From an uncultured Gammaproteobacteria bacterium (GTDB lineage Bacteria; Patescibacteriota; Patescibacteriia; Magasanikbacterales; UBA922): 64,000 nt of DNA. The notes beneath the pieces are model-generated. The model worked only from the letters and a program-made list of their open reading frames with translations. It had not been told where the DNA came from and did not search any database. The stretch covers positions 345,236-409,235 of the forward strand of contig CAYMVY010000001.1 in NCBI GenBank assembly GCA_964394405.1, in the 5' to 3' direction. Within the stretch, counting starts at the first letter, position 1. The number at the start of each line of letters is the position of its first letter. Positions 17,097 to 40,011 of this stretch are shown here, piece by piece. A program made the translations under genes and the position numbers.

Positions 17097-17150
17097 ATAT
17101 AATTATTTTCTAGTTCATAGCCAATCCCGATTTAATCGGGATGAACTTAG

Positions 17151-38726: not shown

Positions 38727-39488
38727 ATGTATGTCTATCTATACGACAATTTTTTAAGGCACAAACGGTATCAGACCGTGCTTAAGGCAATGGAGACACG
38801 ACTCACCGACTATGGAATTGCTGGGAAAATTATTCGATTACAGCAATATTCTTCCTCAGATCTCGTAATCCAGGACGAAATTCGTCGAGGTGCAAAGACG
38901 ATTGTAATCGTGGGCAATGACACTACCTTCGGGCACGTGCTCTCCTATGTCGCTTCGTACGATATTACGTTTGCATTTATTCCGATGGGTCCGGATAATA
39001 GCATCGCCCAGGTGCTCGGAATTCCGATTGGTATTGACGCGTGCGATATTCTCGCTCGTCGAAGACGTCTTCGACTTGATGTGGGTTGGATTAATAATCG
39101 GTACTTTATTTCCCAGCTGCATATTCCGCCAAGCCATATTTCAATTCAATATGACGAGCGCTTCACGGTGTCTAGTAAAAGTGGAAAGATGGAGCTCGTA
39201 GTGTGTAATCTTAAACCGTTTGTGTGGACTGGAAAAGGCAAAAGATATATTGCGCATCCGCAGGATAATAAGCTTGAAGCATTTTTGCGTCCAGTAATAA
39301 AAAAGGGGATATTTGGTCGCGATCAATTCGAAGAACCAAGTATTTTTCCATTTGAAGAAATGGTAGTGTGGAGCAAAAAACCATTTGTGGTTGAAGCGGA
39401 TGGGAAAACTACCAAAGAAGTAAAAATTACGATTAGACTTGCCAAAAGCAGGATTGATATGGTGGTGGGGAAGGAGAGAAAGTTTTGA
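38727..39488 (+). CDS. diacylglycerol kinase catalytic-domain family lipid kinase (YegS/DAGK_cat-like)
   Basis: IVIVGNDTTFGHVLSYV ... FAFIPMGPDNSIAQVLGIP matches the GGDGT ... P-G-T-N-D pattern of DAGK_cat. Confidence 0.5.
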   Translation: MYVYLYDNFLRHKRYQTVLKAMETRLTDYGIAGKIIRLQQYSSSDLVIQDEIRRGAKTIVIVGNDTTFGHVLSYVASYDITFAFIPMGPDNSIAQVLGIPIGIDACDILARRRRLRLDVGWINNRYFISQLHIPPSHISIQYDERFTVSSKSGKMELVVCNLKPFVWTGKGKRYIAHPQDNKLEAFLRPVIKKGIFGRDQFEEPSIFPFEEMVVWSKKPFVVEADGKTTKEVKITIRLAKSRIDMVVGKERKF

Positions 39489-39498
39489 ACTATTACGG

Positions 39499-39527
39499 TT
39501 GACAAAACCGTTTTTTTGTGATAGCAT
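39499..39527 (+). promoter_or_regulatory. candidate promoter of rnpB (TTGACA - 17 nt - TAGCAT)
   Basis: A perfect -35 ttgaca at 39499-39504 and tagcat at 39522-39527. The predicted TSS coincides with the start of the P1 helix. Confidence 0.4.
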
Positions 39528-39532
39528 GTCAC

Positions 39533-39978
39533 TGTTTCGTATTACTTGAGATGATCGTCTTATCCTCCGATTCGGAGAGTAGGAAGGAAAGTCCGAACTT
39601 CCCCCGACGTTACGTCGGGGAAAAAGGTAGTGGGTAACACCCACCCCCCGATCCGTGAGGTATTGGGGCGGGAAAGTGCCACAGAGACTATACTACCCTG
39701 CACCAGAAACGGTACAGGGGAAACGTGAAAAGTGTGCTGATGTGTTGATCGGTTCAGCAATTGCGCTTGATCAATGCTACGGTACTAGTCCTATTGTGAA
39801 ATAGGATGTTGGTAAACCCTACCTGAAGAAAGAGCAGCGTTTCCCGACTCAGTCGGGATTCGAAAAGTTAGCTCGTTTTGATCTCACTGGCAACAGTGGG
39901 GCTAGAGAAATGATCATTACTCCCGACGTAACGTCGGGGGATACAGAATTCGGCTTATGAGAGTAGTGCGAAACAAAA
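39533..39978 (+). ncRNA. rnpB: RNase P RNA (bacterial type), with extra hairpin insertions
   Basis: Universal P4 segments GGAAGGAAAGTCCGAAC and ACAGAATTCGGCTTAT, GGTAGTGGGTAACACCCACC (the GGUAAC P5-P7 region), GGGAAACG and GGTAAACCCTACC. The P1 pairing is tgtttcg...cgaaaca. It is followed by the atctgtacc-agaaa-tggtgcagattttttt terminator at 39981-40011. Confidence 0.75.
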
Positions 39979-39980
39979 AG

Positions 39981-40011
39981 ATCTGTACCAGAAATGGTGC
40001 AGATTTTTTTG
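39981..40011 (+). terminator. rho-independent terminator of rnpB
   Basis: atctgtacc agaaa tggtgcagat followed by ttttttt. Confidence 0.55.

Follow-up and report, generated by a model that had tools for sequence, protein, structure and literature searches.

A palindrome that recurs across bacterial phyla forms two predicted peripheral helices of a type A RNase P RNA from a Magasanikbacteria-like bacterium

Among the helices of bacterial RNase P RNA, the product of rnpB, P19 is an optional stem-loop flanked by the P2 3' strand and the P4 3' strand, and a 4-nt linker takes its place when it is absent (PMC9945441). It has been found in type A and type B RNAs (PMC2858038). Type B RNAs are without P6, P16, and P17 and carry the P5.1 hairpin between P5 and P7 (PMC5066622, PMC7191817), and P16/P17 together with the P6 pseudoknot are a hallmark of type A (PMC5066622). 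Here, we describe the rnpB gene in a 64,000-nt stretch of DNA from an uncultured bacterium (contig CAYMVY010000001.1; the whole stretch is called the window). Two peripheral helices of its predicted RNA are copies of one GC-rich palindrome, which also stands behind a DUF1653 gene of the window and in genomes of other phyla.

Repeats inside structural RNA genes are familiar, such as STRR in P12 of cyanobacterial rnpB, the Rickettsia palindromic elements, and the GC clusters and hairpins of organelle rRNAs. Hairpin elements are also described from sponge mitochondria (PMC2800124). The CGTC-tagged families of repetitive extragenic palindromic (REP) elements are short GC-rich palindromes that lie after genes and are transcribed (Di Nocera et al. 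2013, PMC3733652). Some REP families cross phyla, and the CGTC REPs have no dedicated transposase (PMC3733652). Finally, template-switch mutations give rise to RNA hairpins and preserve them (Monttinen and Loytynoja 2022, PMC8794818).

A full-length match to the Rfam model RNaseP_bact_a (RF00010) covers model positions 1-367 on the forward strand (153.2 bits against a gathering score of 100, E 2e-47), and class A is the best Rfam family for this RNA. The match confirms the rnpB gene that a preliminary description of the DNA, made from the sequence alone, had recognized at 39533-39978. All helix assignments given here are predictions from the Rfam covariance-model alignment. The gene and the three copies of the palindrome are as follows.

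Positions 39539-39973, forward strand: rnpB, RNase P RNA with a type A scaffold (RF00010 match; L001 is a near-identical copy and L002 an 81% identical allele).
Positions 39602-39620, forward strand: hairpin 1, the J5/7 helix and palindrome copy 1, CCCCGACG-uua-CGUCGGGG, inserted between model positions 62 and 63.
Positions 39920-39940, forward strand: hairpin 2, which is P19 (J2/4) by the alignment and palindrome copy 2 with the centre base flipped, CUCCCGACG-uaa-CGUCGGGGG.
Positions 52812-52838, both strands: palindrome copy 3, a 12-bp perfect hairpin, TATCCCCCGACG-tta-CGTCGGGGGATA, terminator-like each way, between the DUF1653 gene and a repeat array.

Hairpin 1 follows directly on the 5' strand of P5 (CUUC, 39598-39601) and precedes P7. 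Its stem is perfect over 8 bp, with four G and then A in the 3' arm, and folds with -14.2 kcal/mol (z -3.2 against shuffles). The preliminary description had seen this hairpin, but with 9 bp and between P4 and P5. Hairpin 2 is flanked by the P2 3' strand and by ACAGAA, the P4 3' strand, and contains seven Watson-Crick pairs, one U.G, and one C-G (-15.3 kcal/mol, z -4.3 against shuffles); here the earlier placement, between P18 and the 3' strand of P4, was correct. The accompanying statement that neither position bears a helix in the bacterial consensus does not hold, as P19 is a known optional helix, the P5.1 position is occupied in type B, and relatives bear helices at both. The covariance-model alignment largely places the two hairpins at sites of described helices, with P19 instead of P18 for one and the P5.1 position within a type A scaffold for the other. 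Since there is no U tract 3' of either hairpin, neither is a terminator. Both are regular peripheral helices of the lineage and form stable structural stems outside the catalytic core. Hairpin 2 resembles P19 in that it lies exactly at the P19 site and is variably present and varied in relatives. It differs in that its sequence equals another helix of the same RNA, a terminator, and helices of other phyla.

Exact matches to the 17-mer CCCGACGTWACGTCGGG number three in the 64 kb (39603-39619, 39922-39938, and 52817-52833), and 100 dinucleotide-preserving shuffles of the window gave none. Copy 3 starts 24 nt past the DUF1653 stop codon. Of its 12 pairs, 8 are GC, the T-rich tails are GTTTTGTGTA on the forward and TTTTAATTAC on the reverse strand, and the two folds reach -21.5 and -22.4 kcal/mol, well beyond those of shuffled sequences. 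It thus has the sequence features of a bidirectional intrinsic terminator, as which it is predicted, and it is identical in the independent assembly L247. The shared hairpin behind the DUF1653 gene had already been noticed, but its extent was given as 52815-52835. The copies about 13 kb apart share more than the 17-mer: copy 1 with two P5 nucleotides (39600-39620, 21 nt) equals the plus strand of copy 3, and copy 2 with its GGAUA flank (39922-39943, 22 nt) equals the minus strand, both exactly.

Three sets of relatives were compared. Set (a) comprised L001, which is near-identical, and L002, whose flanks are 98.6% identical; set (b) comprised six contigs found through synteny with the neighboring diacylglycerol-kinase-family (DAGK) gene, with 85-96% protein identity; and set (c) comprised 120 metagenome contigs with the J11/12 motif GTGCCACAGAGACTATAC, which yielded 70 distinct full genes, ten of them aligned to the Rfam model. 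Of the 70 related rnpB genes, about 37 have a hairpin directly behind P5 and about 45 have P19; at both places the sequences are essentially unrelated, covary, and vary in length. In J5/7, L002 reads UCUUGUCUA-uuuuu-UAGAUAAGA and L248 the same with one G.U replaced by A-U; the form UCUUAUCUA-uuuuu-UAGAUAAGA occurs among the close relatives of set (b). L251 has CUUGGUGGAA-uuu-UCUACCAAG and L253 has CCGUAUCUA-uuu-UAGAUGCGG, and L249/L250 carry CCUCGACG-uaa-CGUCGGGG, which is the palindrome with a flipped centre and one C to U change. In P19, the palindrome of L002 is identical to that of the window, and L248 (CCCGGC-cua-GCCGGG), L249 (CCCAAC-ucg-GUUGGG), and L253 (CAGUGC-gaaa-GCACUG) carry other stems. 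The more distant L182 combines CCCCGAUG-uuu-CAUCGGGG in J5/7 with CCCCGACG-uga-CGUCGGGG in P19.

Because relatives bear quite different hairpins at both places, the helices predate the palindrome, which appears from these alignments to be one of many sequences that fill the two lineage helices. An empty site was not seen among the relatives: close ones have another hairpin in the same place. In L002, rnpB is inverted, only 81% identical, and provided with its own promoter and terminator (L002 1595-2712 against window 39485-39964), and a GC-rich open reading frame (ORF) of 128 aa beside it uses a terminator matching that of the window rnpB. Between the DAGK and hydrolase genes, the DNA behaves like a cassette that can be exchanged. 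Moreover, the distribution of helix caps fits no single tree, as the window goes with L249 in P5.1 and P9 and with L002 in P14, P18, P19, and the 3' end. Together, the mosaic caps and the cassette swap of L002 point to recombination between rnpB alleles. An assembly or library artefact was rejected, as the same rnpB hairpins are found in independent assemblies from different runs (L001, L002, L247, and L249/L250) and copies of the palindrome in long-read or complete assemblies, e.g. OZ246403.1.

A further helix tip of the window rnpB has a twin within the gene's own terminator.

Positions 39698-39717, forward strand: P12 tip CUGCACC-agaaac-GGUACAG with a C.A mismatch, a near-copy of the rnpB terminator hairpin.
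Positions 39981-40011, forward strand: rnpB intrinsic terminator, AUCUGUACC-agaaau-GGUGCAGAU followed by a U run (inverted repeat and reading of the sequence).

The P12 tip CTGCACCAGAAACGGTACAG and the terminator hairpin at 39983-40002 are identical at 17 of 20 positions in direct orientation, with 0 such matches expected by chance. They differ by three transitions, one of which creates the C.A mismatch of P12. The terminator, which a consensus terminator scan missed, is kept in L001 and L253, and in L002 it is reused downstream of another gene. As this terminator family is common to L001, L002, and L253, and P12 is different in every relative, the likely direction is from terminator to P12. 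In L251, the rnpB terminator reads CCCGAUA-uc-UAUCGGG. Three helix tips of the window rnpB (J5/7, P19, and P12) therefore have twins among terminators.

The explanation that we favor, to which we give about an even chance of being right, is that copies of other hairpins have been written over helices of the lineage at the DNA level and were then spread by recombination. A terminal hairpin would now and then be overwritten by a DNA copy of another hairpin, through ectopic gene conversion or through template switching at stalled hairpins, and the product would survive where the RNA needs just some stable stem. Homologous recombination between strains would then shuffle rnpB segments that carry different caps. 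Acquired helices would afterwards drift like any others, as may be the case for the window rnpB compared with L249 and L182, and for L107 compared with L075. We infer the copying mechanism from the helix positions, the sequence identities, and the mosaic alleles. Template switching as described resembles this proposal in being a replication mechanism that makes multi-base, one-step changes in the stems of RNA genes and leaves perfect stems. Its classical form, however, copies nearby sequence in reverse complement, whereas P12 and the terminator are in direct orientation and copies 1 and 3 are 13 kb apart. Repeats in structural RNA genes are comparable in that a genomic repeat family fills peripheral helices of an essential RNA and function is kept; those repeats, in contrast, are lineage-specific, abundant, and length-adding, while the helix of the window is re-written at similar size and the palindrome spans phyla.

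The two copies within rnpB are 100% complementary to each other over 20 nt, including their UUA and UAA triloops, and the nested minimum free energy fold of the whole RNA (-176.2 kcal/mol) joins them at the cost of P2 and P5. In principle, they could cooperate through a long-range helix of about 20 bp beside P4, or through a UUA/UAA loop-loop kiss, and so provide a new tertiary strut. We regard this as extremely improbable. Both copies occur together only in the window and in L001, and no other relative retains a complementary pair: the J5/7 hairpin of L002 and L248 and the P19 of L249 are different ones, with loops that are not complementary. The long helix would also cross P2 and P5, which are both supported by the covariance-model alignment. 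Furthermore, the local folds amount to -14 to -15 kcal/mol, and transcription reaches hairpin 1 about 320 nt before its partner. Functional long-range pairing or kissing was rejected on the restricted occurrence of the two copies and on the crossing of P2 and P5, and the complementarity is probably a liability, not a feature.

To follow the palindrome beyond this lineage, one scan of 185,579 species genomes was made with CCCGACGTWACGTCGGGG and returned at least 120 loci. The palindrome takes the form (g)CCCCGACG-TWA-CGTCGGGG(c), with 19-21 nt. Among the matches listed, nearly all of which are in metagenome-assembled genomes (MAGs), Patescibacteria account for about half, followed by Omnitrophota, Planctomycetota, Elusimicrobiota, and Chlamydiota, with Ratteibacteria, WOR-3, and some uncultured Gammaproteobacteria also present; the taxa of these matches are heavily skewed. 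Because a uniform-composition estimate gives about 140 chance matches for an 18-mer in the whole genome collection, the raw match count alone proves nothing. An extra complementary pair beside the 17-mer, giving CCCC...GGGG, is found in 70% of the listed copies against 25% expected, an excess that is partly built in because the scan pattern fixed the fourth G on one side.

It is conceivable that pure convergence accounts for these matches: AT-rich genomes need short, very stable stems, the same sequence recurs by mutation and compensation, and the identities are coincidental or ancestral. CCCGA-type stems are indeed the commonest hairpin arms in the 70 related rnpB genes, some of them inherited at P12 and P17. 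There are also graded variants, such as CCCCGAUG-uuu-CAUCGGGG, CCCAAC-ucg-GUUGGG, and UCCGACG..CGUCGGA, and the consensus of helix h10 of the small-subunit rRNA is itself a GC-rich hairpin of equal size. Nevertheless, we consider convergence very unlikely. Equally stable 8-bp stems number in the thousands, yet identity is exact over 17-21 nt in unrelated helices and phyla, and over 21-22 nt with flanks inside one genome. In 831 kb with 127 exact palindromes, two control palindromes of the same composition had no exact match and 1-2 distant ones, although this comparison is biased by the fetched loci having been selected for the palindrome. The identity of P12 and terminator, in addition, involves a different and non-optimal hairpin with a C.A mismatch.

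A general excess of CCGAC-armed hairpins with other loops was rejected, as about 33 were present in the 831 kb of palindrome-bearing loci, within the range of other GC-rich arms. The exact palindrome was absent from 663 kb around the 120 related rnpB genes of the candidate phyla radiation (CPR). In the same 663 kb, 6 of 567 perfect hairpins with a stem of at least 7 bp were CCGAY-armed; with a 6-bp threshold, such arms made up 30 of the 174 GC-rich hairpins in rnpB but 9 of 296 elsewhere, a contrast partly due to homologous helices.

Many copies stand in structural RNAs. In 23S rRNA, L043 has three copies or variants, and further ones are found in L065, L066, L064, and L075. In 16S rRNA, L107 and L075 have three copies or variants each, and in L107 helix h10 consists wholly of the palindrome, which also forms the tip of h6; the 16S and 23S rRNAs of Microgenomates hold at least three copies or variants each. 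A canonical type A rnpB of a Candidatus Brocadiia MAG (L032 992-1414, reverse strand, 250 bits) reuses the 8-bp stem CCCCGACG/CGUCGGGG in P3 (uaa loop), P14 (gcaa loop), and P18 (uaa loop). The palindrome is also present in P9 of the RNase P RNA of L044 (Planctomycetota), where it recurs 58 nt downstream of the gene, and in a truncated Ratteibacteria rnpB (L072). In an Auribacterota MAG (L053 1081-1500), it replaces the anticodon arm in a duplicated 5' part of tRNA-Val(GAC); this remnant is followed by a GIY-YIG-type ORF and an intact tRNA-Val, an arrangement that looks like an element integrated in the T-arm. As a separate observation, an Omnitrophota MAG (L006 4028-4653) has the palindrome between its 23S and 5S rRNA genes, adjoining a LAGLIDADG endonuclease ORF.

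Such exactness could reflect selection, if a protein common to these lineages bound the palindrome either as DNA, in the manner of a symmetric dimer, or as an RNA hairpin, and the site were acquired for that reason. The sequence is exact across phyla while vertical descendants drift, as in the 16S rRNA of L107 and L075 and in rnpB of the window, L249, and L182, and the consensus reaches 21 nt (gCCCC...GGGGc). The centre may be A or T either way (72 TTA and 62 TAA among the listed copies) and rarely G or C, as would suit a two-fold symmetric DNA site. A recognition site is nevertheless unlikely in our view, since the copies occupy many unrelated helices (16S h6 and h10, several 23S sites, and P3, the P5.1 site, P8/P9, P14, P18, and P19) as well as pseudogene remnants and REPs, with no common spatial or functional context. 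Close relatives manage without the palindrome at the same helices, and the neighborhoods (149 ORFs) offered no candidate protein. The half-site CCCGACG alone is not enriched outside the palindrome, ranking 16th of 105 7-mers of the same composition, and the idea of a DNA-uptake sequence was rejected on this count as well. That the two centre orientations are about equally frequent and both occur in the RNA sense, and that the flanks show no asymmetry, suggests that a DNA-level process is likely. The symmetric W centre in either orientation fits such a process or a two-fold symmetric binding site alike.

In other genomes, the palindrome is part of repeats. It lies within bidirectional terminators of A-tract/T-tract type, and it is the apex of CGTC/TGTC-tagged REP-like elements in Omnitrophota, Planctomycetota, Gottesmanbacteria, and others (L008 7946, L041 584, L054 3374, and L087 1247 on the reverse strand), with the forms GTCATTGCGAGG...CGAAGCAATC, GTCATCCTG...CAGGATC, and GTCATTCTGA...GAAGAATC. 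In these elements the basal stem covaries and the apex is variable, the palindrome often being found there. In a Roizmanbacteria MAG (L018 2804-4755), 69-nt inverted repeats with 84% complementarity surround a 1.8-kb AbiEi/AbiEii toxin-antitoxin cassette, and their inner ends are the palindrome. Copies are mostly non-coding, with a median covering open frame of 86 codons compared with 324 at random positions.

The preliminary description had proposed a small mobile or recombining hairpin in permissive sites of a structured RNA. In its mobile version, a miniature REP-like element or one resembling miniature inverted-repeat transposable elements, served by a transposase in trans, would have entered permissive sites, twice in rnpB and once behind the DUF1653 gene. 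The REP-like elements (PMC3733652) and the inverted repeats of L018 lend this some support. Single MAGs among the matches listed hold 5 to 17 copies, an Omnitrophota MAG having at least 17 exact ones and a Planctomycetia MAG at least 8, and 20% of the listed copies stand on at least three further pairs (1.6% expected), as though they had been dropped into the loop of an older hairpin. The transposon reading was rated lower, however, because helices are replaced as whole hairpins, relatives without the palindrome carry helices at both rnpB sites and no site is empty, the copy number in the lineage is low, and no associated enzyme emerged from the neighboring ORFs. Apart from the two rnpB copies there is one extra in 64 kb, and there is none in the 663 kb around related genes. 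In a Pfam scan of 149 ORFs beside copies, which did not extend to whole genomes, no Y1/RAYT, insertion sequence, or other transposase family stood out, and methyltransferases were the commonest family with 4 of the 149. The flank logo of the copies showed stem-extending preferences only (-1 Y/+1 R, -2 G/+2 C), with no asymmetric signature, no unpaired GTAG or CGTC tag, and no target duplication. The whole IMG/VR collection of viral contigs contained only 3 copies of the shorter 17-mer, on which count a phage origin was rejected too. REP elements remain close in being short GC-rich palindromes behind genes, some of them shared across phyla, and the palindrome often forms the apex of the CGTC-tagged ones. 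The palindrome itself differs from them in having neither the unpaired GTAG/CGTC tag nor a stem that begins with A/T, in its low copy number in most carriers, in its presence inside rRNA and RNase P RNA helices, and in being far more uniform across phyla. Altogether, a mobile element seems quite unlikely to us. Of the preliminary proposal, recombination at rnpB and the sharing of one hairpin between helices of a structured RNA and a terminator stand, but insertion and transposition find no support.

Several points weigh against the preferred reading, in which helices are overwritten by hairpin copies. No copying event with a clear donor, recipient, and junction has been seen; P12 and the terminator, and copies 2 and 3, are similarities only. 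Copying within a genome also leaves the identical 17-21-mer in different phyla unexplained, and this identity needs horizontal spread or convergent selection, e.g. by a shared binding factor. Part of the excess of CCCGA-type stems in rnpB is therefore due to shared descent, since at P12 and P17 such stems are ancestral in the lineage. The enrichment of the palindrome rests on indirect arguments from the genome scan and its at least 120 loci, and the helices are those predicted by covariance-model alignment rather than by probing.

A wider proposal, more doubtful than the overwriting of lineage helices and put forward tentatively, is that gCCCCGACG-TWA-CGTCGGGGc is an actively propagated helix cap that overwrites hairpins of rRNA, RNase P RNA, tRNA remnants, REPs, and terminators across Patescibacteria, Omnitrophota, Planctomycetota, Elusimicrobiota, and other uncultured phyla. 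As part of the same joint claim, its driver would be either a DNA-level process targeted at hairpins or a shared factor that recognizes the palindrome.

The remainder of the window RNA is that of an ordinary and presumably functional rnpB. P13, P14, and P18 are all present, with a 50-nt insert inside P13. In the P4 strands and core joining regions, the consensus AGGAAAGUCCG ... ACAGAAnnCGGCUUA is matched by GGAAGGAAAGUCCGAAC and AUACAGAAUUCGGCUUAU of the window with high posterior probability. P14 (GUCCUAUUG-UGAA-AUAGGAU) and P18 (CUCACUG-GCAA-CAGUGGG) both align as S-domain helices with GNRA loops. Two helices deviate from type A. In P16, six of six pairs are non-canonical or deleted, both in the window and in 10 + 6 aligned relatives. 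The P15-17 arm closes in a UCA triloop with no complement in J5/7, and P6, a pseudoknot that itself lies outside the covariance model, therefore cannot form in this RNA. Nor is the L15 GGU motif found, since the consensus CGGGUagg aligns to AAAAGUUAG and the window reads AGU. Variation of the L15 GGU is known from some lineages, among which Chlamydiaceae are named (PMC9945441). AGU in place of this tRNA-CCA pairing motif, together with the loss of the P16 pairs and P6, was observed throughout this CPR group (window 39830-39880), and it may trace to tRNA genes without encoded CCA.

Of the type B features, P10.1, P15.1, P15.2, and the L5.1-L15.1 contact were looked for in the window RNA and not found, and there is only a single arm between P15 and P18. 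The alignment therefore describes a predicted type A scaffold with one type-B-like feature, the hairpin at the P5.1 position. Hairpin 1 shares with the type B P5.1 its position and an RNA without P16 and P6 pairs; it differs in its type A scaffold, which has no P10.1, P15.1, or P15.2 and offers no L5.1-L15.1 partner. Homology with P5.1 is unlikely, and convergence is more plausible. These CPR lineages seem to be characterized by a type A variant that is without P6 and P16 and often bears a J5/7 hairpin.

The arm between P15 and P18 bears another hairpin of similar sequence, and a promoter precedes the gene.

Positions 39843-39857, forward strand: P15-17 arm tip CCCGAC-uca-GUCGGG, fold -13 kcal/mol (pattern search and alignment).
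Positions 39499-39527, forward strand: sigma-70-like promoter TTGACA-17-TAGCAT with TG before the -10 element (10 of 12 matches, consensus match only).

The looser pattern CCCGAC-N(1-12)-GTCGGG gave the arm tip as its one extra site in the 64 kb. The preliminary description had related this hairpin to the palindrome and located it at 39846-39866; the hairpin exists, but its coordinates are those listed. Relatives have CCCGAC-uaa-GUCGGG, CCCGAU-ucc-AUCGGG, or CCUGAU-ucu-AUCAGG at this tip, and L001 reads GUCAGG, so that from the alignment it appears to be an ordinary covarying helix of the lineage. The putative promoter ends 12 nt upstream of the RNA start given by the covariance model. The neighboring DAGK gene is also encoded by further public contigs. 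As its homologues at 65-75% identity are named Candidatus Magasanikbacteria, the host is placed, on sequence grounds, as a Magasanikbacteria-like member of Patescibacteria (CPR).

Other repeats and hairpins of the window were observed alongside. A repeat array next to copy 3 (52850-54000 and 55548-56350) consists of five tandem units of about 382 nt each, with several long stems, which covary from unit to unit, and with apical parts that vary, e.g. GACCAGTRGGAC...GTCCYACTGGTC and GGGTGGCTCGACGAC...GTCGTCGAGCCAC. It looks like structured RNA genes of uncertain kind, and a sub-threshold Rfam match to ncr1175 (46 bits against 60; 52808-52916, reverse strand) takes in copy 3. The array is interrupted by an element of about 1.6 kb with a GC content of 0.51 compared with 0.42, whose ORF (54061-55470, reverse strand, 469 aa) has an IS110-type Transposase_20 domain. 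This IS110-like gene was rejected as the driver of the hairpin, as it lies 1.2 kb from copy 3 within an unrelated repeat array and shows no tie to the hairpin. Elsewhere, the hairpin ATCCCGAT-tta-ATCGGGAT at 17124-17142 has a core, CCCGAUUUAAUCGGG, that is also the tip of the P17 arm in the related rnpB of L189, a further case of a hairpin common to an intergenic site and an rnpB helix.

A full-text literature search returned no matches for a 15-mer of the palindrome and, for an 11-mer, primers and unrelated sequence only; nor did it find a description of CPR rnpB structure or of a cross-phylum palindrome. The rnpB gene, P19, and P5.1-like helices are of known kinds, and the recurrent cap palindrome shared by different phyla is apparently what is new here. 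The alignments document a CPR-wide variant of the type A RNA without P6 and P16 and often with a J5/7 hairpin at the P5.1 position, in which it converges on type B. Two copies that are complementary within one molecule represent a measurable misfolding hazard and a testable case for co-transcriptional folding. If copying from hairpin to hairpin is true, variable helices of essential RNAs can switch in one step by cassette replacement, and structural RNA helices and terminators share one hairpin pool. This would affect how covariation and the variable regions of rRNA are read in phylogenetics, as well as the design of probes. Should the palindrome prove to be a helix cap under active propagation, part of the evolution of variable regions would be driven not by point mutation but by a selfish or templated hairpin.

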